From IMG/VR virus record IMGVR_UViG_3300043411_001575, positions 32,001 to 96,000 of that record: a stretch of DNA of 64,000 bases. One strand, written 5' to 3'. The notes below the pieces were generated by a model, which had not been told where the DNA came from, did not search any database, and saw nothing but the letters and a program-made list of their open reading frames with translations. Shown in pieces: positions 45,774-64,000 of this stretch. The DNA is from a virus. The first letter of the stretch is position 1. Every line of letters starts with the position of its first letter. Made by a program: the position numbers and the translations under genes.

Positions 45774-45896
45774 TTATAACGTATGGTGCTATACTTAGTG
45801 CCGATTTATGAAAACGAATGTTAATTATTAAAAACAAAAAGATGTTAAAAAACGAAATAACCGAGAATGAGGCATTGAGTATAGCACGTGTTAGTG
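45774..45896 (+). repeat. attC-like hairpin 1 (contains MTase start codon)
   Basis: TAAC..GTGCTATACTTAGTGCC/GGCATTGAGTATAGCAC..GTTA. Confidence 0.85.
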
Positions 45897-46882
45897 GCAG
45901 TACTTTTGTGAATGCTGATTGCTTCGATGTTTTTCCTTTTATTGAGGATAAATCAATTGATGCTATTATTTGCGATTTACCTTATGGAACTACTGCTTGT
46001 GCTTGGGATATAATAATACCTTTTGAGAAATTATGGAAAGAATATGATAGAGTTTTAAAAGACAAAGGAAGTATTATTTTGACAGCATCACAACCATTTA
46101 CAAGTATTTTACTTATGAGTAATTTAAAATGGTTTTCTCACGAATGGATTTGGGAAAAAGAAATGGGTAGCAATTTTATGTTAGCAAACAAGCAACCACT
46201 AAAAATACACGAAAGTATATTGGTTTTTAATAGACCAATAAATGAAGTGAAAAATGATTTTGGCAAATACTCGGATATTAGGGATTATTTTCAAGAAGAA
46301 AGAAAAAAAACAAATTTATCGTATAAAGAAATAAACGAAAAATGTTTTGGTAGTGCTTCAAATGGTGGTGGTATGGCTTCAAATATTTTAACGAGTTATA
46401 AGAAAGGTTGGAGTTTTCCAAGTAAAGAAAAATATGAAGCATTGCAAAAAATAGGTATTTGTAAAACTCCTTATAATGAATTGAAAAATGAATATTTAAA
46501 AGCATTTGAGATTGATAGAACATACAACCCTATAAAAACCGATGGTAAACCTTATGTAATTAAACAAGGTGGCGTTTCTGATGTTTACGGAAATAAAGAA
46601 AACAATATCACAACTGAAAATAACGGAGATAGATTTCCAACTTCAATTTTAAAAATCAAACGTGATAAAGAAAAAATACACCCAACAGCTAAACCGCTTG
46701 AACTTATGGAATACCTTGTTAAAACATATACCAACGAGGGCGACACGGTTTTAGATAATACAATGGGTTCAGGTACAACAAACTTAGCCTGTATCAAATT
46801 AAATCGCAAATCAATTGGAATAGAAAAGGAAAAACAATATTACGATGTGGCTGTTCGGAGGGCTTCGGAGTATTGCCACTAA
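45818..46882 (+). CDS. N6/N4 DNA methyltransferase (beta class) with internal HTH-like insertion
   Basis: DLPYG motif IV, HPTAKP, VLDNTMGSGTT motif I. Confidence 0.92.
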   Translation: MLIIKNKKMLKNEITENEALSIARVSGSTFVNADCFDVFPFIEDKSIDAIICDLPYGTTACAWDIIIPFEKLWKEYDRVLKDKGSIILTASQPFTSILLMSNLKWFSHEWIWEKEMGSNFMLANKQPLKIHESILVFNRPINEVKNDFGKYSDIRDYFQEERKKTNLSYKEINEKCFGSASNGGGMASNILTSYKKGWSFPSKEKYEALQKIGICKTPYNELKNEYLKAFEIDRTYNPIKTDGKPYVIKQGGVSDVYGNKENNITTENNGDRFPTSILKIKRDKEKIHPTAKPLELMEYLVKTYTNEGDTVLDNTMGSGTTNLACIKLNRKSIGIEKEKQYYDVAVRRASEYCH

Positions 46883-47007
46883 CGTATGGTGCTATACGAA
46901 GGAGGCGATTATTAGCACTAAAGTTGATGCGGAGTACAAATGTTTGTTTAACCACAAATGTTTCTACGGAGTACCAAACCGCCTCTTTTGTATAGCACGT
47001 GTTACCT
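46877..47007 (+). repeat. attC-like hairpin 2
   Basis: GTGCTATACGAAGGAGGCG/CGCCTCTTTTGTATAGCAC. Confidence 0.85.
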
Positions 47008-47073
47008 GCTGGTGTGGTTTATTTAGCAGGATTTTGATTTGAAAACGAATAGAAAATTTAAAAAGTTTTAGAA

Positions 47074-47319
47074 ATGGGAACACAAAAAATGTATGCAGTA
47101 GAATATAAAACGGATAGTAGTTCTACTTATGAAATATTTGAAAATTATGATGATGCCTTAGCGTTTGCTAATAGTAATGAAAATGCTATGTTTTTATTTA
47201 CGGCAGACTTTAATAAGGATAGAATTTATTTAGATGGCGAAACTTGGAATTATGATGATTTTGCCGACACTTTTATTAACCAAGAAACAATTGAAACTTA
47301 TGAAATATATGGGAAGTAA
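47074..47319 (+). CDS. cassette hypothetical protein
   Basis: ORF in cassette 47001-48095. Confidence 0.7.
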   Translation: MGTQKMYAVEYKTDSSSTYEIFENYDDALAFANSNENAMFLFTADFNKDRIYLDGETWNYDDFADTFINQETIETYEIYGK

Positions 47320-48067
47320 GGCAAGATTTAGTAAAGATATTTTGCCGATAATATTAAAAGATAGAACAGTCGAACAATGGTATGTTGAACCATTTGCAGG
47401 AGGAATGAACGCTATTTGCGAAGTAGGTGGTAATAGACTTGCTAACGATAAAAACTATCACTTAATTGAAATGTGGAAAGGATTAGCAAACGGAATTAAA
47501 TATCCAACGGACATACCAAAAGAATTGTATAACCTTGCAAGAGATGTGTATAATGGCAGAGAAACAAGGTTTGAACATAAAATGAATATGGCTGACGATA
47601 TGGTAGGATGGATTGGTTGGATGGGTTCTGCAAATGGAAGATTTTTTGATGGTGGATATAGTGGGAAATCAAACACAAAAATTGGAACTGTCCGTGATTA
47701 CATTAAGGAAGCAATAAGTAATATTGAAAAGCAATTACCAAAGATGGCAGGTGTTAAATTTGAAAATAAAGATTATACCAAATTGGAAATTCCTAATTGC
47801 AGTATTATTTATTGCGACATTCCATATCAAGGAACAAAACAATATTCAACATCAAAAGATTTTAACCATTCTAATTTTTGGAATTGGTGTAGAGAAAAAG
47901 CAAAGCAAGGACATACGATTTTTGTAAGTGAATACAATGCACCTGATGACTTTGAATGTGTTTGGCAAAAAGAGGCAAAATCTTCTTTATCGGCAAACGG
48001 CAAAATCGGTGGCAATAAGTTGAGCGTGGAAAAACTTTTTAAATTTTCTCCCACAAATGTTCAATAG
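47300..48067 (+). CDS. Dam/D12-class N6-adenine DNA methyltransferase
   Basis: MKYMGSK, YVEPFAGG, AND, YCDIPY, FVSEY. Confidence 0.92.
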   Translation: MKYMGSKARFSKDILPIILKDRTVEQWYVEPFAGGMNAICEVGGNRLANDKNYHLIEMWKGLANGIKYPTDIPKELYNLARDVYNGRETRFEHKMNMADDMVGWIGWMGSANGRFFDGGYSGKSNTKIGTVRDYIKEAISNIEKQLPKMAGVKFENKDYTKLEIPNCSIIYCDIPYQGTKQYSTSKDFNHSNFWNWCREKAKQGHTIFVSEYNAPDDFECVWQKEAKSSLSANGKIGGNKLSVEKLFKFSPTNVQ

Positions 48068-48088
48068 TAGCACTATCGTAGCACTTGC

Positions 48089-48154
48089 AGGTAACAGACA
48101 AGGCTATATTCTCGTGCCGTTTTTCACGGCATGGAATTATAGCCGATGTTATGC
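48089..48154 (+). repeat. attC-like hairpin 3 (same stem as hairpin 16)
   Basis: GGCTATATTCTCGTGCCG/CGGCATGGAATTATAGCC. Confidence 0.85.
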
Positions 48155-48233
48155 AAGTGGGTTGGGTTGTGGGTGGCTCGTTTCAAAACTCTTTTTCTTA
48201 TTTTTTTAGGGAGGGATTTTTTATTTTCTTTTT

Positions 48234-48266
48234 TACTTGCCAATTGACAATTTATGTTTATCTTTG
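48234..48266 (+). promoter_or_regulatory. cassette promoter/operator, repeated at 51771, 56831, 61529, 62489
   Basis: TACTTGCYAATTGACAATTTATGTTTATCTTTG: TTG -33 and TATCTTTG -7 around a near-palindrome. Confidence 0.85.
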
Positions 48267-48308
48267 TAGCAGATAATTTAATACTAACAATTTAAAAACA
48301 AAAACAAA

Positions 48309-48524
48309 ATGAGCAAAATCACAGACTTTTGGGTGGTTACTAAACCAACGAAAAATTCAACATTGGCAGATATTCTGTTTAGTGCAGATATGAAACGAAT
48401 GGAATTGCAGTTCAAAGGAGGATTGACTGGAAAGGAAATTGTTGGAACATTTACCACAAAAGACCAAGCTACAAAGGTTGCTAAAATGGCACTTTTAAAA
48501 GCTGGTGCAAATGTAAAATTTTAA
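48309..48524 (+). CDS. cassette hypothetical protein
   Basis: First ORF after cassette promoter. Confidence 0.75.
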   Translation: MSKITDFWVVTKPTKNSTLADILFSADMKRMELQFKGGLTGKEIVGTFTTKDQATKVAKMALLKAGANVKF

Positions 48525-48542
48525 CATCTAAAACGAAACAAA

Positions 48543-48734
48543 ATGGGAATTTCAAAAACACTTGACCAAAGCAGAACCATTGTTTACGAAAACAAACTCG
48601 TTACTTGGGTTGATTGGGCATCTAAGGATGTTCACAAAGGAACAATTAAAATAAAAATACTCGGCAGGAAAACTTACATAACTGTTGATTACAACGACTT
48701 GAAAAATGTAAGTGTTACTAAAATTAAAAAATAA
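48543..48734 (+). CDS. cassette hypothetical protein
   Basis: ORF with A-rich leader. Confidence 0.7.
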   Translation: MGISKTLDQSRTIVYENKLVTWVDWASKDVHKGTIKIKILGRKTYITVDYNDLKNVSVTKIKK

Positions 48735-48739
48735 AAACT

Positions 48740-48907
48740 ATGGCAACTAAACCTAAAGCACCGTTTCAGGTAGGCGGTTACAAAGTAAAATGGTCTACAT
48801 CAAATAAAACTTGGCAGATTTGGAAAGGCAGTAAATTGATTGACGATTTTACAACTAAAGAAAGTGCAAGAACAAAAGCCGAAAGACTAACAAGAGGCTC
48901 TTACTAA
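48740..48907 (+). CDS. cassette hypothetical protein (55 aa, below ORF-track cutoff)
   Basis: MATKPKAPFQ...RLTRGSY. Confidence 0.7.
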   Translation: MATKPKAPFQVGGYKVKWSTSNKTWQIWKGSKLIDDFTTKESARTKAERLTRGSY

Positions 48908-48917
48908 AAACAAAACA

Positions 48918-49070
48918 ATGAAACTATCTGTAACAGAATATGCAAAACAGCTTGGTGTAACTCGTCAGGCTGTTTTGTTACAGATTAAAGAAAAAAGGCT
49001 ACCAAAAAATGTTATAGTTGAAAAAATTGGTAATACTTATCTCTTATCTGTGCGTGGGCAAAAAAAATAA
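48918..49070 (+). CDS. small HTH DNA-binding protein, copy 1
   Basis: MKLSVTEYAKQLGVTRQAVLLQIKEKRLP. Confidence 0.85.
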   Translation: MKLSVTEYAKQLGVTRQAVLLQIKEKRLPKNVIVEKIGNTYLLSVRGQKK

Positions 49071-49091
49071 GAAAAAGAGTTTTGAAATGTT

Positions 49092-49213
49092 GCATAACGT
49101 TATCTCGCTTGGCGAGGTTTGGGGTTGAAACCCTATAATTTCTAATTTAAAACAAAATATAATGAACACCGATATAAACGAAAATCCCAAATCTTGCCAA
49201 ACGAGTGTTATGG
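49092..49213 (+). repeat. attC-like hairpin 4 (contains MTase start)
   Basis: CTCGCTTGGCGAGGTTTGGG/CCCAAATCTTGCCAAACGAG. Confidence 0.85.
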
Positions 49214-49998
49214 TTAGTGCGGATTTGATTAACAAAATTCATAATGAAAACTGCCTTGAAACAATGGCGAAAATGCCTGATAATTTTATTGATTTAACTG
49301 TTACCTCACCGCCTTATGATGGATTAAGAACGTACAACGGTTATAGTTTTGATTTTGAAAGTGTCGCAAAAGAATTATACCGAGTTACTAAAGAGGGTGG
49401 TGTTGTAGTGTGGGTTGTGGGCGATGCAACAGTAAAAGGCAGTGAAAGTTTAACATCATTTAAACAAGCTATTTATTTCAAAGATATTGGGTTTTCTGTA
49501 GAAACTATGATTTATGAAAAGGCGCAATCTTGCTTTGGTAGTAACACCTATTATTTGCAGGCGTTTGAATATATGTTTGTTTTAACTAAAGGCACTAAAC
49601 CAAAAGCAATTAATCATTTACGTGACCGCAGAAATGAGCGTAGTGGCGTTGAGAGTATGGGAAAAGGAGGCTTAAATAAAAACGGCACTAAAACAGACAG
49701 GCATAAAAAAGAAATGCTCGAATATGGTAAGCGAAAAAATATATGGAAATACGGAGTGGGTGGAGGCAAGACGGGACATCCTGCGGTATTTCCTGAACAG
49801 CTCGCAAACGACCATATAATTTCGTGGAGCAATGAAAACGATATTGTTTACGATTGCTTTAGCGGAAGCGGAACAACTGCTAAAATGAGTATAATTAATA
49901 GCAGGCGATGGATAGCGTCTGAAATGAGTGCTGAATATTGCGATATTATAAAAGAACGTATTAAAGTAGATAAAGGTCTTTTTGAAAACGTATCGTAG
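49162..49998 (+). CDS. N4-cytosine/N6 DNA methyltransferase
   Basis: TSPPY, HPAVFP, YDCFSGSGTT. Confidence 0.92.
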   Translation: MNTDINENPKSCQTSVMVSADLINKIHNENCLETMAKMPDNFIDLTVTSPPYDGLRTYNGYSFDFESVAKELYRVTKEGGVVVWVVGDATVKGSESLTSFKQAIYFKDIGFSVETMIYEKAQSCFGSNTYYLQAFEYMFVLTKGTKPKAINHLRDRRNERSGVESMGKGGLNKNGTKTDRHKKEMLEYGKRKNIWKYGVGGGKTGHPAVFPEQLANDHIISWSNENDIVYDCFSGSGTTAKMSIINSRRWIASEMSAEYCDIIKERIKVDKGLFENVS

Positions 49999-50004
49999 CA
50001 TTAA

Positions 50005-50099
50005 CCATAACGGATGGTGCTATGAGCAGGTTTGCCTTGTAGAAATGTTCAAGTTACCGAAAATGTTATTGGCAAACTTGCTTATAGCACGTGTTATAC
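50005..50099 (+). repeat. attC-like hairpin 5
   Basis: GTGCTATGAGCAGGTTTGCC/GGCAAACTTGCTTATAGCAC. Confidence 0.85.
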
Positions 50100-50156
50100 G
50101 CTGGCACGGTAAATTCAGCAGAAACTTAATTTGAAAAACTAAAAGAAAAAATAAAA

Positions 50157-50735
50157 ATGAGCAAAGGAGATTTTACAACATTAGGAGCATCAGCACACTC
50201 AAAAGAAGAGCGTGAAGAAAATGACTTTTATGCAACAGACCCAAAAGCATTAGAGATATTCCTTGAACAAACAGGGATTGAATTGCGAAACGTATGGGAA
50301 TGTGCTTGTGGAGAAGGGCATTTGGCAAAAGTATTAGATGCAAGAGGATTGCTTGGAAGAGCAAGTGATTTGATTGATAGAGGTTATGGAATAACGGAGA
50401 GTAATTTCTACTACTTTTCTGAAATATGGGAAGGAGATATATTAACAAATCCACCATACGGAGATGCTATGAAATTTTGCCAACACGCTCTTGATTGTGT
50501 GGATGAAGGAAGTAAAGTAGTGATGCTTATGCGTATTCAATTCTTAGAAGGGCAAAGACGTAAACCTTTTCTTTTGAAAAACCCGCCAAAGTATGTTTAT
50601 GTTAGCAGTAGCCGATTGTTACTCGCTAAAAACGCAGACTTTGTAAAGTACAACACACCTTCCGCTAATTGCTATGCGTGGTATGTTTGGGAAAAAGGAT
50701 TTAAAGGCGAAACTACTTTACGTTGGTTTAATTAA
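50157..50735 (+). CDS. compact N6-adenine DNA methyltransferase
   Basis: DFYATDP, WECACGEG, ILTNPPY, YAWYVW. Confidence 0.9.
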   Translation: MSKGDFTTLGASAHSKEEREENDFYATDPKALEIFLEQTGIELRNVWECACGEGHLAKVLDARGLLGRASDLIDRGYGITESNFYYFSEIWEGDILTNPPYGDAMKFCQHALDCVDEGSKVVMLMRIQFLEGQRRKPFLLKNPPKYVYVSSSRLLLAKNADFVKYNTPSANCYAWYVWEKGFKGETTLRWFN

Positions 50736-50804
50736 AAAGTGCGTGGGAAGATTTTTATTTTTTCTCTCACAAATGTTGAATCGAAGAACGAATGTAGTGC
50801 TTGC

Positions 50805-50937
50805 GTATAACGGCATCGGGCTTTGTGTCCGTTGGCGACTTAACCCACCAATGTTAAATTAAAAAACGAAACTTGATATGAGTACAAATGATGAATTGAA
50901 AAACGAAACCGCCAATGGCACAAAACCCGTGTTATCG
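50805..50937 (+). repeat. attC-like hairpin 6 (contains ORF start)
   Basis: CGGGCTTTGTGTCCGTTGGCG/CGCCAATGGCACAAAACCCG. Confidence 0.85.
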
Positions 50938-51150
50938 GCTGGTTGGATTTCTGTAAAAGAGCAATTACCTGAATATTGGAGTCAACACCGAAATGATTAT
51001 GGAAGTGGTTACGTTCTTGGTTATACTAAATATGGTGAATGGGAAATAACTCAACTTTGGAATAATAAAGATTGGGAAGGTGATGATGACAATGAAGGTG
51101 ATTATATTACTCATTGGATGCCGTTGACCGTTCCACCAACTTGCCGATAA
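50878..51150 (+). CDS. DUF551 family protein
   Basis: WISVKEQLP...ITHWMPL..PP. Confidence 0.85.
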   Translation: MSTNDELKNETANGTKPVLSAGWISVKEQLPEYWSQHRNDYGSGYVLGYTKYGEWEITQLWNNKDWEGDDDNEGDYITHWMPLTVPPTCR

Positions 51151-51280
51151 CGTATCGTGGCTTTGTTGTCGTTGTGGCTATTTAAGACCAAACTTAACAA
51201 ATAATAACTAAAAATTAAATTTATGACTGAACTTTCAAAAAATGCCCAAGTGCCACAATGCGACAAAACCGCTGTTAGTG
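51145..51280 (+). repeat. attC-like hairpin 7 (contains ORF start)
   Basis: GGCTTTGTTGTCGTTGTGGC/GCCACAATGCGACAAAACC. Confidence 0.85.
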
Positions 51281-51621
51281 GCTGTGTTTTAGGATTACCT
51301 GAAATTGGAAAAACATATAATTGCTTTGATGATGGGAAAATAAGTAAAAGTAGAATGTATCAAGTTACAATAAGTGAAATAATCCCATTTGAAAAAGCCG
51401 ATAATGAATTGTTAGAATTATGGGAAGAAGAAGGATTACCGAGTTATTGGTTGTTTGAAAAAACAGATTATTTCATAAAATTTAAAAGTACAGAATTTAA
51501 AGACGAACCAAACGGAGTTTTTGCAAGAACTAAAAACGGTGGTTGGTTTGGTTTAGGGAACTATTGGAATAGTGGTAGATTAGATGTTGACGGCTCTTTA
51601 ACGCAAAGCTTGTCAACATAG
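51223..51621 (+). CDS. cassette hypothetical protein
   Basis: ORF crossing GTT junction at 51274. Confidence 0.75.
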   Translation: MTELSKNAQVPQCDKTAVSGCVLGLPEIGKTYNCFDDGKISKSRMYQVTISEIIPFEKADNELLELWEEEGLPSYWLFEKTDYFIKFKSTEFKDEPNGVFARTKNGGWFGLGNYWNSGRLDVDGSLTQSLST

Positions 51622-51622
51622 C

Positions 51623-51685
51623 CACTAACGGCATCCGTATAAGGGAAGTGCGAGGAACGAGCATTTACTTTATACGGTGTTAGCA
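51623..51685 (+). repeat. attC-like hairpin 8
   Basis: CCGTATAAGG/TTTATACGG. Confidence 0.8.
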
Positions 51686-51850
51686 AAGTGCGTTGGGCTG
51701 TGTGTTGGCTCGTTCCAAAACCATTTATTTTCTTTTTTTTGGGGAGGTTTTGAAAACTTTTTTACTAAAATACTTGCTAAATGACAATTTATATTTATCT
51801 TTGAACCATATTAACAATTAAAAAATAAAAACAATTAAAAAATAAAAACA

Positions 51851-52036
51851 ATGACAAAATTCGGAACAACAACTTGCCAATTTTACAACGGAACAGATTC
51901 AGTAACCGTAAATTCATCACTATTCAGAACCATTAGAGGTTGGGCTTCTACTGGTATTCCAAAAGATGCTATTAAAGGGGGAAGAAAGGTTTACGTTGCT
52001 AAAACAACTCTTGAACGCATTAAAAAAATTGCTTAA
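51851..52036 (+). CDS. cassette hypothetical protein
   Basis: ORF after cassette promoter 51771. Confidence 0.7.
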   Translation: MTKFGTTTCQFYNGTDSVTVNSSLFRTIRGWASTGIPKDAIKGGRKVYVAKTTLERIKKIA

Positions 52037-52221
52037 TGAGAATTTCTGTAACTGATTATGCAAAACAGCTTGGTGTAACTCGTCAAGCTGTTTTGTTACA
52101 GATTAAAGAAAAAAGGTTGCCTAATAATGTTAAGTCTGAAAAAATTGGCAACACTTACTCTTTAACTGTGGGTGGGCAAAAAAAGAATAAAAATGCTTCC
52201 AATAAACTACAATCGAAGTAG
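52036..52221 (+). CDS. small HTH DNA-binding protein, copy 2
   Basis: SVTDYAKQLGVTRQAV. Confidence 0.85.
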   Translation: MRISVTDYAKQLGVTRQAVLLQIKEKRLPNNVKSEKIGNTYSLTVGGQKKNKNASNKLQSK

Positions 52222-52236
52222 TATCGTAGCAATGGG

Positions 52237-52362
52237 GCATAACGGTTTCGGGCTTGGCGAAGTGGCTGAACTCGAAGCTAAATAGGATTACTAAACTTTA
52301 AAATTAAAAACGAATGTTAGATAGAATTACTGAACAGCCATTTTGCCAAACCCGTGTTATGT
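52237..52362 (+). repeat. attC-like hairpin 9 (near-identical to 12; contains MTase start)
   Basis: GGGCTTGGCGAAGTGGCTG/CAGCCATTTTGCCAAACCC. Confidence 0.85.
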
Positions 52363-53135
52363 GCAGGGCGGTTGATAATCTTGAACTCCTTTTGTCGCAG
52401 CCTGATGAAAGTGTAGATTTGATTTATTGCGATATACTTTACGGAACAGGTAGAAATTTCAGTGAATATCAGGACTTGAAACCAATTAGAAGTGAGATTG
52501 AAAGCCACTACCTACCACGTTTTATCGAAATGAAACGAGTCTTAAAACAAAGCGGCACTATATACATTCATACGGGAGTAAACACTTCCCATTGGATTAG
52601 AAGTTTAATGGATGATGTTTTTGGGTATAATAATTTTCAAAATGAAATTATATGGTACTACAAAAATTCCGCATTGAAAGCTAAGTCAAATAAATTTAGG
52701 CAGAATACAGATACTATACTTTACTATGTAAAAGAAAAGGGTAAACATATTTGGAATGATGTTTACGAAAAGTGTAAACCTTATAAAAACTCAAAGCATA
52801 AATTTAATCCAATAACAAAAAAAGCTGAAAGGCAGAGAAATGAAAGTGGTAGAATTGAATACTTTATGGTAGATGAAAGGAAGTGCGATAACCTAATTCA
52901 GATAAATGCTTTAAATAGTAGTGAAAAGGTTGGTTACCCTACTCAAAAACCAAAGGAACTAATAAGCCGTTTTGTTTTAGCTTCTACGAATGAAGGGGAT
53001 GTAGTGGCTGATTATTATTTAGGTAGTGGCACAACCGCAGTAGTTTGTAAAGAACTAAACCGAAATTTTATAGGTTGCGACATTAATCCAAAGGCTATTG
53101 AAATAACAAATGCTCGTTTAGATGCAGTTTCGTAG
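52314..53135 (+). CDS. N6/N4 DNA methyltransferase (atypical DILY motif IV)
   Basis: VDLIYCDILY, FQNEIIW, YPTQKP, DYYLGSGTT. Confidence 0.88.
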   Translation: MLDRITEQPFCQTRVMCRAVDNLELLLSQPDESVDLIYCDILYGTGRNFSEYQDLKPIRSEIESHYLPRFIEMKRVLKQSGTIYIHTGVNTSHWIRSLMDDVFGYNNFQNEIIWYYKNSALKAKSNKFRQNTDTILYYVKEKGKHIWNDVYEKCKPYKNSKHKFNPITKKAERQRNESGRIEYFMVDERKCDNLIQINALNSSEKVGYPTQKPKELISRFVLASTNEGDVVADYYLGSGTTAVVCKELNRNFIGCDINPKAIEITNARLDAVS

Positions 53136-53141
53136 CCTTGC

Positions 53142-56312: not shown

Positions 56313-56316
56313 TGTT

Positions 56317-56449: not shown

Positions 56450-56677
56450 CCAGTATTTGTTTATGAATTTCTTTATAATTCTGATTGTTGCGAAGGTGCA
56501 GCATCAACTGTAAGCATTCACAAAACAAAGAAAGGTGCTGAAATGGCAATGGAGTTTCATAAAAACGAAAAACTAAAAGAGTGGGAAAAAGAATGCAAAG
56601 AATATCCACCTACAAAAGAATATCCGTTTGATTTTGACCAATGGTGGGGAGTTCGTGAATGCGAGTTGCTTCCTTAA
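56375..56677 (+). CDS. cassette hypothetical protein
   Basis: ORF crossing GTT junction at 56443. Confidence 0.75.
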   Translation: MTDLNTSTEVTQPTEPAIAVEPVLAPVFVYEFLYNSDCCEGAASTVSIHKTKKGAEMAMEFHKNEKLKEWEKECKEYPPTKEYPFDFDQWWGVRECELLP

Positions 56678-56683
56678 TATTGG

Positions 56684-56749
56684 TGCTAACGTTTACGGCT
56701 ATATTCTCGTGCCGTTTTTCACGGCATGGAATTATAGCCGATGTTATGC
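56684..56749 (+). repeat. attC-like hairpin 16
   Basis: Identical stem to hairpin 3. Confidence 0.85.
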
Positions 56750-56903
56750 AAGTGCGTTGGCTTGTGGGTGGCACGTTTCAAAACTCTTTTTCTTATTTTT
56801 TTTAGAGAGGGATTTTTTTATTTTCTTTATTACTTGCTAATTGACAATTTATGTTTATCTTTGTAGCAGATAATTAATACTAACAATTTAAAATCAAAAC
56901 AAA

Positions 56904-57188
56904 ATGAGCAAAGCAGGATTAACAAAATTTTTAGCAAAGTTCCCAGATGACACTAAAAGCTGGGCTAAAGCAACAGATGAAGTTCGTGATATTGCACGAA
57001 CAGCAAAAGAATATTACAATGAAATAGAAGGCAAAGATATTCAACCTTGCGATTTCCGTTCAATGAAAACGCCTTCCGAATGGAACACAAAAGGTAAAAG
57101 CTACATTTTTAAAGTGTATGATAAAATGAGTGCAAAAACAAAAACAGAGTTTAACGGCTATTTGAAAAGCCACTTTAATATTAAATAA
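56904..57188 (+). CDS. cassette hypothetical protein
   Basis: ORF after cassette promoter 56831. Confidence 0.75.
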   Translation: MSKAGLTKFLAKFPDDTKSWAKATDEVRDIARTAKEYYNEIEGKDIQPCDFRSMKTPSEWNTKGKSYIFKVYDKMSAKTKTEFNGYLKSHFNIK

Positions 57189-57189
57189 A

Positions 57190-57348
57190 ATGGAGCAACT
57201 ATCTGTAACCGATTATGCAAAATTGCTTGGCGTAACTCGTCAGGCGATTTTGTTACAGATTAAAGAAAAAAGGTTGCCGAAAAATGTTACAGCAAAAAAA
57301 ATCGGGAACACTTATCTACTATCTGTGCGTAGGCAAAAAAGAAAATAA
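57190..57348 (+). CDS. small HTH DNA-binding protein, copy 3 (52 aa)
   Basis: MEQLSVTDYAKLLGVTRQAIL. Confidence 0.85.
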   Translation: MEQLSVTDYAKLLGVTRQAILLQIKEKRLPKNVTAKKIGNTYLLSVRRQKRK

Positions 57349-57474
57349 ATGGTTTTGGAATGTTTGCTAACGGTGTGGGCTATGAGAAGTAAAACCCCTT
57401 TTTGTGCGGTGGATTTTGTAAATTTGTAATTATTAACTAAAACCTTTCGGAGTATAGGAAACCGAAATAAAGTT

Positions 57475-57720
57475 ATGGCAAAATCAGTAGCAATTTTTCA
57501 AGAAAAATCATCTAAAACAGGAAGTTTTATTGGTGATAAAATTTATTATTACAAAACAAAAAATCCTAATTGGTGGTTTGTTTCAGTTGGCAAAGCATAT
57601 TTAGGGACTGTGCCTGAATACGGAAGCGGAACAGGGCAATTTAAAAACAAGAAACAATACCCGACTATTGCTTCATTGGAAAAATACCACAAAGAAGATA
57701 ATATTCACAGAGTAGATTAA
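57475..57720 (+). CDS. hypothetical protein
   Basis: ORF followed by terminator. Confidence 0.75.
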   Translation: MAKSVAIFQEKSSKTGSFIGDKIYYYKTKNPNWWFVSVGKAYLGTVPEYGSGTGQFKNKKQYPTIASLEKYHKEDNIHRVD

Positions 57721-57730
57721 TGTTATTTAT

Positions 57731-57765
57731 GTAGTGGCTATGCCTTATTGTAGCCACTACTTTTT
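57731..57765 (+). terminator. intrinsic terminator
   Basis: GTAGTGGCTA-loop-TAGCCACTAC TTTTT. Confidence 0.8.
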
Positions 57766-57833
57766 AATCTTTTCACAGTTTTGAAAAAACTGAAAGAGTG
57801 CGTGGGCTTTTTCTTTTTTAATAATTTAATTGC

Positions 57834-57926
57834 CACTAACGTTGAAGGGCTTGGCGAAGGTGGGCTTGTAGGATGCTCAATTTTAGCAGAATGTTTCTGC
57901 CCACTTTTGCCAAACCCGTGTTATAT
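57834..57926 (+). repeat. attC-like hairpin 18
   Basis: GGGCTTGGCGAAGGTGGGC/GCCCACTTTTGCCAAACCC. Confidence 0.85.
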
Positions 57927-57996
57927 GAAGTGCCGACTTATTTACGTTGAAGCCAAATTGGAACACTAAACAGAAAAACAAAAAGAAAAAAAAGGG

Positions 57997-58809
57997 ATGG
58001 AATTAAATAAAATACATTTAGGAGATTGTTTAGAAGTAATGAAAACTTTGCCAAATGAAAGCATTGATTGTATTGTTACTTCACCGCCATATTGGTTACA
58101 AAGAGATTACGGATGGGATGGACAATGGGGTATGGAAGAAACGTTTTATGAGTATTTGGATAAATTGTTTTTAATGATGGATGAAGCAAAACGAATATTG
58201 AAAAACGATGGAACTATTTTTGTAAATATTGGCGATGGCTATGCAAGAACAGGTGGAAAATCATTAGGTAAAAAACAACCAAACGCTTTATTGTATGCAA
58301 CACAAGAAGGGATAAGGGGCGGAAATAACAAGGGAGTTGCAGGAATACAAGATAAAACATTACTACAAATACCATATCGTTTTTCTATTGGCTGTATTGA
58401 TAGAGGATGGATTTTGCGAAACAATATAATTTGGTTTAAAAGAAACGCAATGCCCGAAAGTGTAAAGGACAGATTTACAAAATCACACGAAGTAATATTT
58501 ATGTTTTCTAAAAACAAAGAATACTTTTTTGACGAAAAATTTGTAACACAAGATGTTTGGGATATTCCTTTAACTCCTAACGGCACAAAACATATAGCAT
58601 CTTACAATACTGATTTAATTGGCAGACCTATTGTTTGCGGTTGCAGAAAGGGTGGAATAGTATTAGATATGTTTTGCGGAGCAGGAACAACAGGAATAAG
58701 AGCATTAGAACTTGGGAGAAACTTTATAGGGATAGATGGTAAAAAGGAATACGTTGATATGGCACAACAAAGAATTAATGATATTGTATCACAACCACAA
58801 TTATTTTAA
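57997..58809 (+). CDS. N4-cytosine DNA methyltransferase
   Basis: TSPPY, NIGD.Y, W.K.NAMPESVKDR, VLDMFCGAGTT. Confidence 0.92.
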   Translation: MELNKIHLGDCLEVMKTLPNESIDCIVTSPPYWLQRDYGWDGQWGMEETFYEYLDKLFLMMDEAKRILKNDGTIFVNIGDGYARTGGKSLGKKQPNALLYATQEGIRGGNNKGVAGIQDKTLLQIPYRFSIGCIDRGWILRNNIIWFKRNAMPESVKDRFTKSHEVIFMFSKNKEYFFDEKFVTQDVWDIPLTPNGTKHIASYNTDLIGRPIVCGCRKGGIVLDMFCGAGTTGIRALELGRNFIGIDGKKEYVDMAQQRINDIVSQPQLF

Positions 58810-58881
58810 AAGTGCGGTGGCTTTTTTCTTTTTGTTTTTCCTTCACGGAACTTCAATTGGAAACGGTCAGCAAGGCATTTC

Positions 58882-58949
58882 ATATAACGACCGTGTGTTT
58901 ATGTCAGGTTTTGCTTTTCGCAAAACTTGCATTAAACACAATGTTAGCA
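58882..58949 (+). repeat. attC-like hairpin 19
   Basis: TGTGTTTATGTCAGGTTTTGC/GCAAAACTTGCATTAAACACA. Confidence 0.85.
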
Positions 58950-59059
58950 AAGTGCGTTGGCTTGTGGGTGGCTCGTTGTATTTAATAAAAAAGAAAAAAA
59001 GGAAGGCGTGTGTTGGCTATTTTAATTTGTAAATTTGTATAAACATAAATCATATAAAA

Positions 59060-59896
59060 ATGAGTAGATATAATAATAGTGGAGATATTGAAGAAGTTTT
59101 ACCGAAAGAGGTATTACAGAAAATAAAAGACAAATTCAAAGCAAAGAGTTTTAAAAAACTTGGTTCAGGTAGATATGGAAGTGCTTTTAAAATAAGTCCA
59201 AAAAAGGTTTTGAAAATCACAAAAGATTTGAAAGAGTATGAATATGCTAAAAAAATTGAAGGACTGAAAAATAAACATATTGCTGATGTTTATGAAACAT
59301 ATCACTTTGAATATGGCGACACAAAGTATGCTGTAATAATTAAAGAATATTGCAATATTGGAGAAGCATATTTTGATAAACTAATAGATAGTTTTGCTGA
59401 ATACACGGGAAACGAAATGTCATTATCATTTGTTTCATCTGAATTTTTGCACGGAGATTTATCAAAGGCGGTTTTTGATAACTACTTTAAAAAGTATAAG
59501 CAAAATCAAGGTTACGCAACAGGATTTGCAGATGATTGGCAAGAAATGATAATGGAATTAAAGAACAAAAAAATCTATGTTAAAGATTTTAACGGTGCTA
59601 ATATTGGAACGAAGCCGAGTAATAATAACATCTGCATCATTGAACTTGGATTAGGTTATTGGGAAACCATAAAATTACCTGATGCAGACAAAATAATATT
59701 AAAGGAAGGTGGAACTATAATTGGAAATTTTGAACCGCTTGGCTCTGCAAAAGAATTAGGAATTAAACCGAAGATTGAGGGACACGATATGATTGCCATT
59801 TGTGATTGTGGAGAAAAATTTAGTTACCAAAACTCAAAGAAGAATATTGTTTGGGAATGTCCTGAATGTAAAAGAAGAAATAAGATTGTAGAATGA
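59060..59896 (+). CDS. protein-kinase-like enzyme with C-terminal Zn ribbon
   Basis: LGSGRYGSAF, VLKIT, KDFNGANIG, IELG; CDCG...CPEC. Confidence 0.8.
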   Translation: MSRYNNSGDIEEVLPKEVLQKIKDKFKAKSFKKLGSGRYGSAFKISPKKVLKITKDLKEYEYAKKIEGLKNKHIADVYETYHFEYGDTKYAVIIKEYCNIGEAYFDKLIDSFAEYTGNEMSLSFVSSEFLHGDLSKAVFDNYFKKYKQNQGYATGFADDWQEMIMELKNKKIYVKDFNGANIGTKPSNNNICIIELGLGYWETIKLPDADKIILKEGGTIIGNFEPLGSAKELGIKPKIEGHDMIAICDCGEKFSYQNSKKNIVWECPECKRRNKIVE

Positions 59897-59969
59897 TTTT
59901 AAACCTTTTCACAATTTTGAAAAAATTGAAGGGAGCGTGGGCTTTTTCTTTTTTATTAAATACAATGTT

Positions 59970-60299
59970 TGCTAACGCATATCGGCTAAACGCAGTATTT
60001 AAAAACTTTTGCGAGGGAAATTCGTAAATTTGACAATTATAAACAATTAAAAAACAAAACAAAATGGCAACAGAAAAAAAGTATGCGGTTTTCGCTACAT
60101 TCAAAACAACAGGTAGAGAAAGTGAAATGACACTACCTATGACAAAAAAAGAAGCTGAAAAGGCTTTATCTGCTTTAAAGGAAAAATCAGCCGAGTTCAA
60201 AAAATTGAACTTTAAAGGATTTAAGATAAAGGCAGTTTAATTATCTCATTAGTGCGGTGGGAAAGTTTTTAAATATTGTCGTTTTAGCCGTTGTTATGC
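59970..60299 (+). repeat. attC-like hairpin 20 with gene in loop
   Basis: CGGCTAAACGCAGTATTTAAAAACTTT...AAAGTTTTTAAATATTGTCGTTTTAGCCG. Confidence 0.8.
60064..60240 (+). CDS. hypothetical protein nested in attC-like loop (58 aa)
   Basis: MATEKKYAVF...KIKAV; TAAATTTG upstream. Confidence 0.7.
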   Translation: MATEKKYAVFATFKTTGRESEMTLPMTKKEAEKALSALKEKSAEFKKLNFKGFKIKAV

Positions 60300-60357
60300 G
60301 AAGGTGTGGCAATTCCAAAATTTCAAATTATAGACAAAACTTTCTTGCCACACTTTT

Positions 60358-60488
60358 GCATAACGTTCCGAGTATTGGAGCAGTGCGGATTTAAACCACA
60401 AATGTTGATATAAAAAATGAAACTTAAATAAACCGATAACCTTTATTAGAAGCACTAAACCCGCATTGCTTACAATACTGTGTTATAG
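60358..60488 (+). repeat. attC-like hairpin 21
   Basis: AGTATTGGAGCAGTGCGG/CCGCATTGCTTACAATACT. Confidence 0.85.
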
Positions 60489-60540
60489 GGAGTGTTTTTA
60501 AAATTTTAGCGGGGATAATTACTAAATTTACAATAAAAAA

Positions 60541-60930
60541 ATGTCAGCAAAATCATATCAAGCACCTGCCAATAAAAAAGTTTATAGAGCAGAAAAAAAA
60601 GGAGTAAAAGGAAACTGGTTTGCATTAAGTAAAGATGATGCAATAGGTTACGGAAATTTTGGTTACAAAATTGTTTCAAAATCAATAGGAGGCAAGAAGT
60701 TTTTATATGCTTCTGAATTAGAAGATGGCGGAACTTATTTTGATACCATAATCAAAAAATTCCCTAAACTTTTCAAAATAAATAAAGGTATTTTATGGAA
60801 TGACTATGAATTGAAAGTATCTCCAAGTGAACTATGGAGAGAGTGTGAAGCATTTTTAAAAAAAGAAGGTTATTCTGGAATATTTACAGGGAAGAAACTT
60901 TCTATTGATTATGAACTTTTTTTGTTTTAG
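60541..60930 (+). CDS. cassette hypothetical protein, possibly ADP-ribosyltransferase-like
   Basis: VYR...GNWFA.....A..Y...GYSGI pattern; weak. Confidence 0.55.
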   Translation: MSAKSYQAPANKKVYRAEKKGVKGNWFALSKDDAIGYGNFGYKIVSKSIGGKKFLYASELEDGGTYFDTIIKKFPKLFKINKGILWNDYELKVSPSELWRECEAFLKKEGYSGIFTGKKLSIDYELFLF

Positions 60931-60959
60931 GTGCGTGGGAAAAATTTTAAAAACATTTG

Positions 60960-61306
60960 CTATAACGTATATCGGCTAAATGCAGTATTTAAAAACTTTT
61001 GCGTGGGAATTTAATTCGTAAATTTGATAATTATAAACCAATAAAAAACAAAATAAAATGGCACAAACAAAAAAAGAGAAACGAGTAATTGCAAGAGCAA
61101 GATACATCGTTGAAGTATTCGCAAAAAGTCATTATGATTCAAGAGATTTGTTTAAGAAAATGACTAAAGAAGAAAAGAAAATAACCATTGATTACATCGA
61201 GAGAATTGGCGAAAGTGCCGTTAGTAGGTATTTATATCAATGGTATTAATTCTCTCATTAGTGCGGTGGGAAAGTTTTTAAATATTGAGTTTAGCCGTTG
61301 TTATGC
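60960..61306 (+). repeat. attC-like hairpin 22 with gene in loop
   Basis: Same arms as hairpin 20, different gene. Confidence 0.8.
61058..61249 (+). CDS. hypothetical protein nested in attC-like loop
   Basis: ORF. Confidence 0.7.
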   Translation: MAQTKKEKRVIARARYIVEVFAKSHYDSRDLFKKMTKEEKKITIDYIERIGESAVSRYLYQWY

Positions 61307-61364
61307 GAAGGTGTGGCAACTGCAAAATTTCAAATTATAGACAAAACTTTCTTGCCACACTTTT

Positions 61365-61432
61365 GCATAACGTTTTGCAGCTAAACGCTGATTTTGTTCT
61401 TCACAAAATTTGCGATTTAGGTGCTGTTACCT
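61365..61432 (+). repeat. attC-like hairpin 23
   Basis: GCAGCTAAACGCTGATTTTGT/ACAAAATTTGCGATTTAGGTGC. Confidence 0.8.
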
Positions 61433-61602
61433 GCTGATGCGGTTTCATAGTACAAATGCTGATTTGGAACATAAAACTAAGGGTTTAATTTTTTTCTTTT
61501 TTTTAGTGGAGGAAAACTTTTTCTTTTTTACTTGCTAATTGACAATTTATGTTTATCTTTGTAGCATATAATTTAACAATAACAATTTAAAACAAAAACA
61601 AA

Positions 61603-61896
61603 ATGGCTGACATCGCATTACCAAAATCAAACCTTTACCTTGAAGGTAGCGGACTTGACACAAACGGAAACAAAGTTGTAAAACTTGGAATTTCAAGTTT
61701 ACCGAAAAACTTTAGTATTCAAACTAATGGCAATTTGCCGAAAACTGGAAGTATCCTTCGTGGCTTGAAAACCAAAAAGGATATGGAAAGCGTGAGTAAA
61801 TCCGATTTGCAAATAATTTCAAAAGAAGTTGTTGCATACATTAAGGAGTTTGGCTCAAAACTGCAAAGAGAAAAATTAAGAACTTACAACTCTTAA
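61603..61896 (+). CDS. cassette hypothetical protein
   Basis: ORF after cassette promoter 61529. Confidence 0.75.
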   Translation: MADIALPKSNLYLEGSGLDTNGNKVVKLGISSLPKNFSIQTNGNLPKTGSILRGLKTKKDMESVSKSDLQIISKEVVAYIKEFGSKLQREKLRTYNS

Positions 61897-61898
61897 TT

Positions 61899-62063
61899 AT
61901 GGAGCAACTATCTGTAACCGATTATGCAAAATTGCTTGGTGTAACTCGCCAAGCAATTTTGTTACAGATAAAAGAAAAAAGGTTGCCGAAAAATGTTACA
62001 GTTAAAAAAATTGGTAATACTTACTCCTTATCTGTGCGTGGGCAAAAAAAAGAAAAAAAATAA
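61899..62063 (+). CDS. small HTH DNA-binding protein, copy 4 (54 aa)
   Basis: MEQLSVTDYAKLLGVTRQAIL. Confidence 0.85.
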   Translation: MEQLSVTDYAKLLGVTRQAILLQIKEKRLPKNVTVKKIGNTYSLSVRGQKKEKK

Positions 62064-62113
62064 ACCCGACTTCTACCACAAATGTTCATTCGGAGCAACA
62101 AAGTAGCATTTGC

Positions 62114-62188
62114 AGGTAACGGACGAGGCTATGAGCAGTTGAGCGTAGCCTGTGCGATGGAAAGAATTGCTTATAGCCTGTGTTATGC
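62114..62188 (+). repeat. attC-like hairpin 24 (loop holds an empty GTGCGATGG site)
   Basis: AGGCTATGAGCAGTT/AATTGCTTATAGCCT. Confidence 0.85.
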
Positions 62189-62277
62189 AAGTGCGTTGGC
62201 TTGTGGGTGGCTCGTTTCAAAACTCTTTTTCTTATTTTTTAGGGAGGGATTTTTATTTTCTTTTTTAACAACAAAAA

Positions 62278-62484
62278 ATGGCTGATTCAATCGGTGGCTT
62301 AGAAGGCACAAAAACTAAATTTTTCATAGATGTAAAAGTTCCTATCAGAGCAGGGATGGAGTTTGGCACAAAGAATTATAAAATAAGAACAATCGGATAT
62401 GAGGTTTTTCGACAATACTTTGATACTAAAGAAAAGGATATGCAAGTAGGTAGGCAAAGAATTGAAAGAAAAATAAATAACTAA
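62278..62484 (+). CDS. cassette hypothetical protein
   Basis: ORF inserted ahead of cassette promoter. Confidence 0.6.
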   Translation: MADSIGGLEGTKTKFFIDVKVPIRAGMEFGTKNYKIRTIGYEVFRQYFDTKEKDMQVGRQRIERKINN

Positions 62485-62562
62485 CTTTTACTTGCTAATT
62501 GACAAATTATGTTTATCTTTGTAGCAGATAATTTAATATTAACAATTTAAAAACAAAACAAA

Positions 62563-62733
62563 ATGGCAAAAAGTAGTTATTACAAGTACGCAGTTGTAGC
62601 GGTAAACACAAAAACAGGTGAAGAAAGTTTAGTATGCAAAGTTCGTGCTGCTGGGGACTTAAACAACATTTTACACGGATTAGAAAAAGCAGTAGGAAGC
62701 TCTCCTATTAAATACAAATCTAAAAAACTGTAA
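62563..62733 (+). CDS. cassette hypothetical protein (56 aa)
   Basis: MAKSSYYKYAVV...; after promoter 62489. Confidence 0.7.
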   Translation: MAKSSYYKYAVVAVNTKTGEESLVCKVRAAGDLNNILHGLEKAVGSSPIKYKSKKL

Positions 62734-62735
62734 AA

Positions 62736-62957
62736 ATGGAACTATCTGTAACAGAATATGCAAAATCGCTTGGCGTAACTCGTCAGGCGATTTTGTTACA
62801 GATTAAGGAAAAAAGGTTGCCTAAAAATGTTACGGTTAAAAAAATTGGTAATACTTATTCTTTATCTGTGCGAGGGCAAAAAAAAAATAAGAAAAAGAGT
62901 TTTGAAATGTTGCATAACGTTATCAGGCTTGGCGAAGTGCCGCTACTCGAAACTTAA
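62736..62957 (+). CDS. small HTH DNA-binding protein, copy 5 (reads through into next hairpin)
   Basis: MELSVTEYAKSLGVTRQAIL; longer A tract shifts the stop out of frame. Confidence 0.85.
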   Translation: MELSVTEYAKSLGVTRQAILLQIKEKRLPKNVTVKKIGNTYSLSVRGQKKNKKKSFEMLHNVIRLGEVPLLET

Positions 62958-63006
62958 ATTTTAGCACTAAACTATCCTGCGGCATTTTGCCAAACCCGTG
63001 TTATGG
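62912..63006 (+). repeat. attC-like hairpin 25
   Basis: GGCTTGGCGAAGTGCCGC/GCGGCATTTTGCCAAACC. Confidence 0.85.
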
Positions 63007-63051
63007 GATAGTTTTAAAAACCTTTTAGGGTGGGCATTAAAAAACGAAATA

Positions 63052-63510
63052 ATGATAATAGCAATTGATTTTGACGGAACTTGCGTAACACACGAATTTC
63101 CCAAAGTGGGCAAAGACATTGGTGCTGTGCCTGTATTGAAAGAGTTGGTTAAAAATAACCACCAATTAGTTTTGTTTACAATGAGAAGTGATATAGTTAA
63201 TCCAACTGGCGAGGATAACGAATTGCACCTTGAAAGTGGGAACTATTTAACTGATGCAATTGAATGGTTTAAACAAAACGAAATACCGCTTTATGGAATA
63301 CAAACCAACCCGACACAGCACACTTGGACTACAAGCCCAAAAGCATACGCACAACTTTACATTGATGATGCTGCTTTAGGTTGCCCACTTTTGGTTGACA
63401 TTGTAAAAGATGGTGACGAAAGCATTAAGCAAGTTGGACGACCTTATGTTAATTGGGAGAAGGTAAAAGAAATGCTAATTGATAAAGGAATTATTGATGA
63501 TGAGGACTAA
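63052..63510 (+). CDS. HAD-superfamily phosphatase
   Basis: IAIDFDGT, LFTMR, K..A.LYIDD. Confidence 0.88.
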   Translation: MIIAIDFDGTCVTHEFPKVGKDIGAVPVLKELVKNNHQLVLFTMRSDIVNPTGEDNELHLESGNYLTDAIEWFKQNEIPLYGIQTNPTQHTWTTSPKAYAQLYIDDAALGCPLLVDIVKDGDESIKQVGRPYVNWEKVKEMLIDKGIIDDED

Positions 63511-63542
63511 CCCGTGCGGTGGGAAAAGGTTTTTAAAATTTC

Positions 63543-63908
63543 CCATAACGGTTCGTGGCTATAAGAAGTAAAACCCATTTTTGAGCGGTGGAAAATTTCG
63601 TATCTTTGTAACGCAATATTGCAAATAAATATAATACTTTAAAAAATGGGAAAAAAAATTGCTTACGTTATTATGGGTGGCGATGATTATGTAACAGAAT
63701 CTTCATCATCAAGGAACAATGGATATGCTTTTACGCATAATCTACAAGGTGCAACTTTTTTTGATTCCAAAGAAAAAGCAGATAATTGTATTAAAAACAA
63801 AAATCTCGAATTTCATCTTGGAAGAAAAGTAAAAGCAAAAAAAGTTTCATTGGTTTAATCTAAGCGGTGCGTTGGCAGGGGTTTTATTTCTTATAGCCCC
63901 TGTTATAG
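63543..63908 (+). repeat. attC-like hairpin 26 with gene in loop
   Basis: Same arms as hairpin 13, different gene. Confidence 0.8.
63646..63858 (+). CDS. hypothetical protein nested in attC-like loop
   Basis: ORF; TATCTTTG upstream. Confidence 0.7.
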   Translation: MGKKIAYVIMGGDDYVTESSSSRNNGYAFTHNLQGATFFDSKEKADNCIKNKNLEFHLGRKVKAKKVSLV

Positions 63909-63923
63909 CATCGTTTTAATGTG

Positions 63924-64000
63924 CTATAACGGTTTGCGTATATGAGAAGTGGCACTTGCACGAACTTAAAATTTAGCACAAATGTTTCTGTGCCATTTCT
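63924..64000 (+). repeat. attC-like hairpin 27, truncated by window end
   Basis: AGAAGTGGCAC/GTGCCATTTCT. Confidence 0.75.

Follow-up and report, generated by a model that had tools for sequence, protein, structure and literature searches.

Our analysis of a 64,000-nucleotide stretch of viral DNA (the window: bases 32001 to 96000 of IMG/VR record IMGVR_UViG_3300043411_001575, 169,658 bp in full, a window position being the genome position minus 32000) revealed an array of hairpin sites that lie on a single strand, fold more stably on that strand and alternate with cargo genes read in the same direction. Most of the cargo is orphan DNA methyltransferases, and a tyrosine recombinase is encoded directly beyond the 3' end of the array. 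We consider it probable that the array is a phage-borne, integron-like cassette platform, in which a Xer-type recombinase would act on attC-like hairpins and the coding strand would be the one that is folded and cut, at TAAC. The record has a G+C content of about 30%, contains promoters of the Bacteroidota type and carries methyltransferase genes similar to those of Flavobacterium phages.

Strand asymmetry of the hairpin sites

The entire record was scanned for AAC…GTT pairs with complementary inner arms, with G·T and A·C pairs scored equally so that neither strand was favoured. The scan returned 47 sites of a single geometry, all on the + strand (5'-TAAC, 4–7 nt, stem … stem, 1–3 nt, GTTA-3'), spanning genome positions 77778 to 114893; outside the array, the rest of the record held no site with a score of 10 or more. 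In the window 23 of these sites begin, all strictly bounded by TAAC and GTTA, and four or five variant or decayed sites bring its total near 27. The array, about 38 kb long and thus double what the window shows, continues to genome position 115656 (window-equivalent 83656). Its sites measure 55–130 nt, up to about 390 nt, with loops of 11 nt to more than 300 nt. Cargo open reading frames (ORFs) all lie on the + strand, and at least nine DNA methyltransferase genes are confirmed among them, at least seven in the window and two directly before the recombinase gene.

An earlier note on the window (positions 45774–63930), made from its letters alone, had counted 27 sites, described their spacers as asymmetric and their mismatches as mostly G opposite T on the + strand, and concluded that the top strand folds better; the scan and the folding bear out all four statements, well beyond what chance would give. 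The spacer after AAC is 5 nt long in 31 sites, 6 in 12, 7 in three and 4 in one, so that 43 of 47 have the 5–6 nt described, and the spacer before GTT is always 1–3 nt (1 nt in 17, 2 in 26, 3 in four). The difference between the two is 3–4 nt in 46 of the 47 sites. Stem pairs comprise 772 Watson–Crick, 85 G·T, 25 A·C and 15 other combinations; the excess of G·T over A·C persists among the 39 unique stems (69 versus 21, binomial p = 4e-7) and among the window sites only (39 versus 12). Arms show 85% Watson–Crick pairing, versus 36% when partners are shuffled, which across 39 distinct stems indicates that structure, not sequence, is conserved.

Both strands of every site were folded. DNA parameters favoured the + strand at 44 of 47 sites (mean difference −2.25 kcal/mol, Wilcoxon 5e-9) and RNA parameters at 41 of the 47 (mean difference −5.6 kcal/mol); for the window sites the count was 22 of 23. 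The + strand is predicted to form a continuous helix of about 20 bp, and the − strand helix is interrupted by two 1×1 mismatches. A bias toward the straight hairpin likewise marks the recombined strand of classical attC sites (PMC6393395), which supports the logic of the strand-folding comparison that the earlier note had proposed.

The G·T pairs are not spread along the stem. One lies exactly 15 nt ahead of the 3' GTT in 39 of 47 sites and a second at 10 or 12 nt; these two places account for 81 of the 85, and in 74 the G is on the 5' arm. The corresponding motifs are GAAG, GAGAAG or GAGCAG facing TTTT, TTTCTT or TTGCTT. We conclude that the pattern is a conserved structural motif, and reflects neither mutational drift nor a general tolerance of wobble pairs. 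The same two positions recur in 31 more sites from eight other flavobacterial phage or host elements, in which G·T again exceeds A·C (46 versus 12) and folding favours the coding strand at 27 of the 31. These elements include two cultured Polaribacter phages, Freya_10, whose recombinase is 31% identical to the one described here, and P12002L, from which the recombinase is absent.

Probable crossover position, cassette unit and recombinase

Adjacent sites are related in a cassette-specific way: the bases that follow GTT of one site pair with those that precede AAC of the next, over at least five consecutive base pairs in 38 of 46 cases, versus 4–5% in controls drawn from the same site or any other site. 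In classical cassettes the corresponding R''/R' pairing beyond the core spans 9–11 nt (PMC2727003). This complementarity fits either model of hairpin ownership, by the upstream or by the downstream gene, and four further lines of evidence bear on the choice.

The first concerns the half site that closes the array, GCACATAAC|GTGTATTT, located some 45 nt ahead of the recombinase gene. A TAAC lies some 40–50 nt upstream of the recombinase ATG in this genome and in seven further recombinase-bearing loci, four with a recombinase 76–80% identical to this one and three with one 57–60% identical. To its left the sequence varies by locus and equals the matching end of the last cassette; to its right it is conserved in the four close loci (L004, L005, L006 and L013), and one contig begins exactly at this TAAC. 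Judged by its sequence, the junction next to the recombinase gene appears to be attI-like and would be the preferred insertion point.

The second is linkage. Among 30 site pairs with cores at least 80% identical, the downstream 60 nt are common to 14 and the upstream 60 nt to one; identical cores retain their 5-nt spacer, and the upstream flank differs right up to AAC. Thirdly, in 14 of the 47 sites the start codon of an ORF of 90–354 aa lies inside the loop, and the frame continues across the 3' arm and GTTA. Two different methyltransferase bodies, for example, are preceded by the peptide MIDRITEQPFCQTRV. If the hairpin belonged to the upstream gene, genes that begin in the loop would straddle a cassette boundary.

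The fourth comes from cultured phages. Compared with Freya_1, Freya_10 has about 4.9 kb and 12 small ORFs extra, bounded precisely by …GTTTACAAC| on one side and, on the other, by |ACCCCTATAAC…(49 nt)…ATG of the integrase gene. The extra block has a hairpin at its start and …GTTGCTAAC at its end, and the attI side, ACCCC, is retained in both phages. The paper on the Freya isolates read the integrase as temperate potential and did not mention cassettes (PMC8776804). Across the records of Freya_1 to Freya_10 (MT732463–MT732472), genome length runs from 43,978 to 48,920 bp and the position of the integrase gene from 50 to 4147, a spread suggesting that cassette content upstream of the integrase forms a graded series; the pair compared is Freya_1 and Freya_10.

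Taken together, the junction, the linkage, the loop ORFs and the Freya insertion place the crossover at the TAAC side and make the hairpin plus its downstream gene the mobile unit. Tyrosine recombinases cut the strand whose binding arm lies 5' of the central region. On the + strand the arm xxxxTAA lies 5' of the spacer, so that the + (coding) strand corresponds to the bottom strand of integrons, which is cut in the R' box between A and C of AAC (PMC2727003). Folding and positional evidence together support the view that the coding strand is the one cut and exchanged.

Two other readings of the repeats were set aside. A crossover after the 5-nt spacer, with the − strand cut by a stem-bound monomer, is contradicted by the identical cores that keep their spacer and by the ACCCC kept at the Freya attI. 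Units of the miniature inverted-repeat transposable element (MITE) or transposon type, with terminal inverted repeats, were rejected, as the stems vary between sites but pair within a site; the dedicated recombinase and attI at the array end also contradict them.

What enzyme could act on these sites? The only tyrosine recombinase in the record is a 289-aa protein with catalytic R, HxxR and H…Y motifs. Its best family match is an archaeal XerA-type model (206 bits, slightly below the cut-off), and it falls well short of the IntI models TIGR02249 (154.8 bits versus a cut-off of 265, split in two stretches) and NF011946 (107.8 versus 435). Its alignment with Pyrococcus XerA (4A8E) is continuous from end to end; that with VchIntIA splits, 25 query residues facing 68 IntI residues that include the IntI-specific domain, where the phage protein is 43 residues shorter. 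By sequence it is Xer-like, without the IntI extra domain, in line with the earlier suggestion of a recombinase other than a standard IntI. An HUH Y1 transposase and a serine recombinase were also searched for in the record, and neither was found.

A search of isolated phages for close homologues of the recombinase gave none above 38% identity. Metagenomes contain many homologues of about 270 aa, and one also occurs in a Flavobacterium genome. In that genome (Flavobacterium sp. GCA_046293665.1, contig JBKBOL010000002.1, our locus L011) the chromosome encodes a recombinase that shares 48% identity with the phage enzyme. Sites with the geometry described here are found 4–9 kb upstream of it, with transporter genes between, and TAAC is absent at the usual distance from the start codon.

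A model for coding-strand recombination and its alternatives

We infer that the hairpin sites recombine, and picture the system as follows. The platform would comprise the 47 sites over about 38 kb and be run by the short Xer-type recombinase encoded directly 3' of them. Its mobile unit would read C, 5-nt spacer, stem … stem, 1–2 nt, GTTA xxxx, ORF, xxxx' TAA. New units would enter the attI-like site, xxxx'TAA|C followed by the conserved stretch of about 45 nt, just upstream of the recombinase gene. Once single-stranded in the cell, the + strand would fold, and the Xer-like recombinase would bind the R box and first helix and presumably cut at TAA|C. A single-strand exchange with duplex attI, or with another folded site, might follow, the product being resolved by replication as in integrons. 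The two wobbles may hold the + helix continuous, the A·C mismatches at the same places breaking the − helix; alternatively, they may supply easily flipped bases. Together with the 3–4 surplus spacer bases on the cut arm, they could form a strand-choice device that replaces the classical extrahelical bases and the extra domain of IntI. More tentatively, and with somewhat less than even confidence, we suggest that wobbles and spacer surplus are a second, independent solution to strand choice, with which a plain Xer-type enzyme suffices, and that flavobacterial phages use it to stockpile and shuffle anti-restriction methyltransferases.

Several observations weigh against this scheme. Outside stem positions 10–16 the balance reverses, with four G·T pairs and 25 A·C pairs, 14 of the latter at one fixed place, a C·A at position 6. 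One could just as well take the wobbles for unpaired features designed into the − strand, of which a fixed A·C bubble might be one, so that the G·T motif alone cannot tell which strand is used. The G·T bias that the earlier note had offered as evidence on the folded strand is hence a real excess, but it is a two-position motif rather than a diffuse preference and by itself no proof of strand use. Seen from the ORFs, the long spacer on the 5' arm of the coding strand corresponds to the classical R''-L'' arm, an arrangement that would agree with bottom-strand use as in integrons. Folding predictions in the array context leave the 4-bp TAAC/GTTA box unpaired, and a decayed site at the left end denies the array a clean boundary there. 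Finally, the record is about 82% complete, and a second enzyme could conceivably be encoded elsewhere.

An unlikely alternative, but the one that survives best, is selection at the RNA level: the G·U pairs would be kept for mRNA structure, with the polarity of DNA recombination a separate matter. The hairpins could display an A-rich leader and start codon in the loop, stabilise transcripts or guide processing. All cargo being on the + strand, every site is present in sense RNA; the energy gain of the + strand is greater under RNA parameters, a start codon lies in the loop of 14 sites, and some loops and cassettes contain Bacteroidota-type promoters. A diffuse requirement for RNA structure would nevertheless spread G·U pairs along the stem, yet they are concentrated at two fixed places with G mainly on the 5' arm, A·C pairs exceed G·T elsewhere, and the positions are retained where no ORF begins in the site and also in distant phages. 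The hairpins lack a following U-tract and are therefore no intrinsic terminators, and an Rfam search of the window returned no family at the sites, only tRNAs and one tmRNA-like match reaching the gathering score. An RNA role is possible alongside DNA recombination, with which it is compatible, but it is not needed to explain the data.

Ordinary double-stranded Xer-like recombination, in which the palindromes would be two inverted binding arms and the G·T pattern incidental, appears quite improbable. Xer-type enzymes do normally use duplex sites, and the recombinase lacks the IntI domain for binding extrahelical bases. The arms, however, co-vary to preserve pairing across 39 differing stems, loop length varies between 11 nt and more than 300 nt, and the mismatches are strand-asymmetric. 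A two-strand exchange would moreover need homology in the central region, with which the unequal spacers of partner sites are incompatible.

To classical polarity we give a shade less credence again. Here the − strand would be folded, the A·C mismatches and 5-nt spacer would be unpaired recognition features, and a cassette would be an ORF plus its downstream hairpin. The extra bases on the 3' arm of the − strand do resemble the classical extrahelical bases of the bottom strand, and unpaired features are essential in classical attC (PMC2727003). Yet the attI-like junction and the Freya insertion locate the crossover on the TAAC side, hairpins are linked to downstream rather than upstream cargo, 14 ORFs would cross a cassette boundary, and the last cassette, beside the recombinase gene, would be without a site. 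In addition, IntI1 gave no verified recombinants with P12002L_attC1 (PMC9892861), the one tested member of the site family described here.

That strand-biased deamination produced functionless G·T pairs is hardly credible: the GC skew of the + strand is positive throughout the array, as such an artefact would have it, but the pairs are specific in position and orientation (39 of 47 sites have one 15 nt from GTT, and 74 of the 85 place G on the 5' arm) and conserved in elements whose recombinase is only 31% identical or absent. The skew was also considered as a guide to the lagging-strand template, a use we dropped, as it tracks the direction of transcription and shows no origin.

How does the array, read as a coding-strand cassette platform, compare with known systems? 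It shares with classical integrons imperfect hairpins of 55–130 nt with invariant AAC/GTT cores and variable, co-varying stems, a cassette-specific R box extension (38 of 46), an attI that adjoins a recombinase gene pointing away from the array, a crossover in AAC, on the strand that bears AAC in its 5' arm, and a recombined strand biased toward the straight hairpin. It differs from them (class 1; the Vibrio cholerae chromosomal integron, VchIntIA PDB 2A3V) in that its recombinase is Xer-like without the IntI-specific domain, its cargo faces attI and the recombinase, each site lies ahead of its gene, and the part of the classical bottom strand falls to the coding strand; bottom-strand use with ORF-then-attC cassettes read from attI and Pc does not describe it. 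There is no common Pc, promoters and start codons being found in cassettes or loops. The classical rule places extrahelical bases on the uncut R''-L'' arm (PMC2727003); instead of single bases there, the present sites have a 3–4-nt surplus in the spacer of the cut arm. The differences also include two fixed G·T wobbles and a virus as the carrier. The phrase "opposite to classical attC", with which the earlier note had summed up these hairpins, holds with a qualification: cargo orientation and the arm bearing the surplus bases are inverted, but polarity relative to the recombinase gene and attI is classical.

CALINs, clusters of attC sites with no integrase nearby, have been reported in phages, among them Polaribacter phage P12002L with its methyltransferases (Qi et al. 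2023, PMC9892861). P12002L has sites of the present family between methyltransferase genes, on the coding strand of these genes and with G·T at positions 10 and 15. Qi et al. regarded their sites as integrase-less classical attC and used IntI1 for the recombination tests; of two P12002L sites so tested, attC1 is the one that belongs to the present family, and it alone among six tested sites gave no verified IntI1 recombinants (PMC9892861). The CALIN label does suit P12002L. It does not suit the present array, where a dedicated non-IntI recombinase and an attI adjoin the sites, the recombinase gene following about 45 nt after the last TAAC.

By layout and cargo, the rAID-1 arrays of Bacteroidales, which combine a XerD-like recombinase with integron-like repeats (Ross et al. 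2019; preprint 10.1101/471110), are also distinct: their recombinase gene stands at the 5' end of a run of co-directional, low-GC genes with repetitive intergenic sequences, the present one at the 3' end of the array. Their cargo is immunity genes on bacterial chromosomes, here methyltransferases in a phage.

In CTX-phi integration, XerCD joins the folded single-stranded attP(+) to a duplex site by one strand exchange, and replication resolves the product. CTX-phi, unlike this array, has a single integration site, relies on host enzymes and carries no cassette array.

In the prevailing view of integrons, recombination of a folded strand requires both an IntI-specific domain and extrahelical bases, and attI is the point from which cassettes are read outward. 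If our model is correct, the array would be a mirror-image integron, in which a Xer-type recombinase does what integron integrases need their extra domain and extrahelical bases for. Viruses would then show integron logic in which the enzyme is simpler, the cargo inverted and the structural mark another, which would bear on the origin of integrons from Xer-like ancestors, on how strand choice is encoded in DNA structure and on how phages maintain a changeable anti-restriction arsenal. The link between the IntI domain, extrahelical bases and bottom-strand use is now testable in cultured Polaribacter phages (Freya_1 to Freya_10, P12002L), among which cassettes of this kind already vary, and the sites could serve as structure-specific recombination tools orthogonal to IntI and attC.

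Layout of the array and further observations

The features are listed below in window coordinates unless stated otherwise; the sites, the cassette array and the recombinase gene all lie on the + strand.

45217–45361, decayed left-most site, read by eye; 3' arm and GTTA intact, 5' base substituted
45358–64000, part of the cassette array in the window, with cargo ORFs and at least seven DNA methyltransferase genes
45777–45893, site 1; a methyltransferase ORF begins in the loop at 45818
46880–47004, site 2, the ATACGAAGG/CTTTTGTAT example of the earlier note
48092–48151, site 3, short
49095–49210, site 4; loop contains an ORF start at 49162
50008–50096, site 5; continuous 20-bp helix on the + strand, helix broken twice on the − strand
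50808–50934, site 6; loop contains an ORF start at 50878
51148–51277, site 7, weak stem; loop contains an ORF start at 51223
51626–51682, site 8, short
52240–52359, site 9, of the GGCGAAG/TTTTGCC family; a methyltransferase ORF begins in the loop at 52314
53145–53269, site 10
54223–54310, site 11
54778–54897, site 12; hairpin matching that of site 9, downstream methyltransferase different, ORF start at 54852
55617–56002, site 13, long; loop with a promoter and a 76-aa ORF, followed by a 29-nt mini-cassette at 55999–56027
56024–56113, variant site ending in GTTG
56687–56746, site 14, short
57364–57400, half site; 5' arm 96% identical to that of site 13, without a 3' arm
57837–57923, site 15
58885–58946, site 16
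59973–60296, site 17, long; ORF within the loop
60361–60485, site 18; stem weak by ungapped score
60963–61303, site 19, long; ORF within the loop
61368–61429, variant site under the score threshold; 95% identical to part of a 642-kb uncultured phage
62117–62185, site 20
62915–63003, site 21
63546–63905, site 22, long; ORF within the loop, mini-cassette next
63927–64000, site 23; extends 14 nt beyond the window end
Genome 115653–115702 (L003:3653–3702), beyond the window, attI-like junction GCACATAAC|GTGTATTTAATGG…
Genome 115703–116572 (L003:3703–4572), beyond the window, gene for the Xer-like tyrosine recombinase, 289 aa

At the left-most site, GTTATAAGCC at 45358 is complementary to GGCTTATAAC at 45771–45780. 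A search for the left array boundary in relatives, with the 389-aa upstream protein as query, found no relative. Elsewhere in the window, about 20 tRNA genes fall in three groups, at 12893–30318 (− strand) and 32807–32961, and the same region includes a match to the permuted-tmRNA model (51.9 bits versus a gathering score of 47).

The four long sites (55617–56002, 59973–60296, 60963–61303 and 63546–63905) hold a promoter-like stretch and a whole small ORF in their loops, the arms lying 320–390 nt apart. Two of them precede a 29-nt mini-cassette without an ORF, GTTAnnGCA-TCGTTTTAATG-TGCnnTAAC. Its 11-nt loop, TCGTTTTAATG, is found at window 56008–56018 and 63911–63921, at L006:347–357 and 1236–1246, in L014 upstream of 10001, and at P12002L 30026–30056 (− strand), within the published P12002L_attC1 oligonucleotide. 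With this recurrence in short sites and mini-cassettes of unrelated phages, it looks like the minimal terminal loop of the site family. Two further ORF-less elements, at 60296–60365 and 61303–61372, are 'inverse' hairpins, GTTATGCGAAGGTGTGGCAA…TTGCCACACTTTTGCATAAC: gene-less cassettes with ends complementary over about 17 bp, G·T once more falling on the + strand.

A second repeat, GTGCG(G/T)TGGG, often followed by a T-rich run, occurs at 48136–48182, 51667–51713, 56731–56777, 58931–58977 and 62170–62216, and also after many stop codons (for example at 50738, 57797, 58811, 59934 and 63513). It is placed either directly after GTTA at cassette starts or directly after stop codons, and could be a terminator-like or binding signal. 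An 85-nt promoter module of the Bacteroidota type (TTG…TAnnTTTG) is present at 48224–48308, 51761–51845, 56821–56905, 61519–61603 and 62479–62563. The five cassettes that carry it end in an ORF of about 50 aa with a helix-turn-helix, the copies being 81–86% identical (48914–49079 and four more), and their end boxes are partly swapped, as if by homologous recombination between copies.

Two uncultured phages of 634–642 kb (LR756502.1 and LR745206.1) share a 65-nt site with the window (61366–61430, 95% identity) and about 1.1 kb of cassette (47001–48116, 86% identity), which indicates that cassettes or sites of this family occur in huge phages too.

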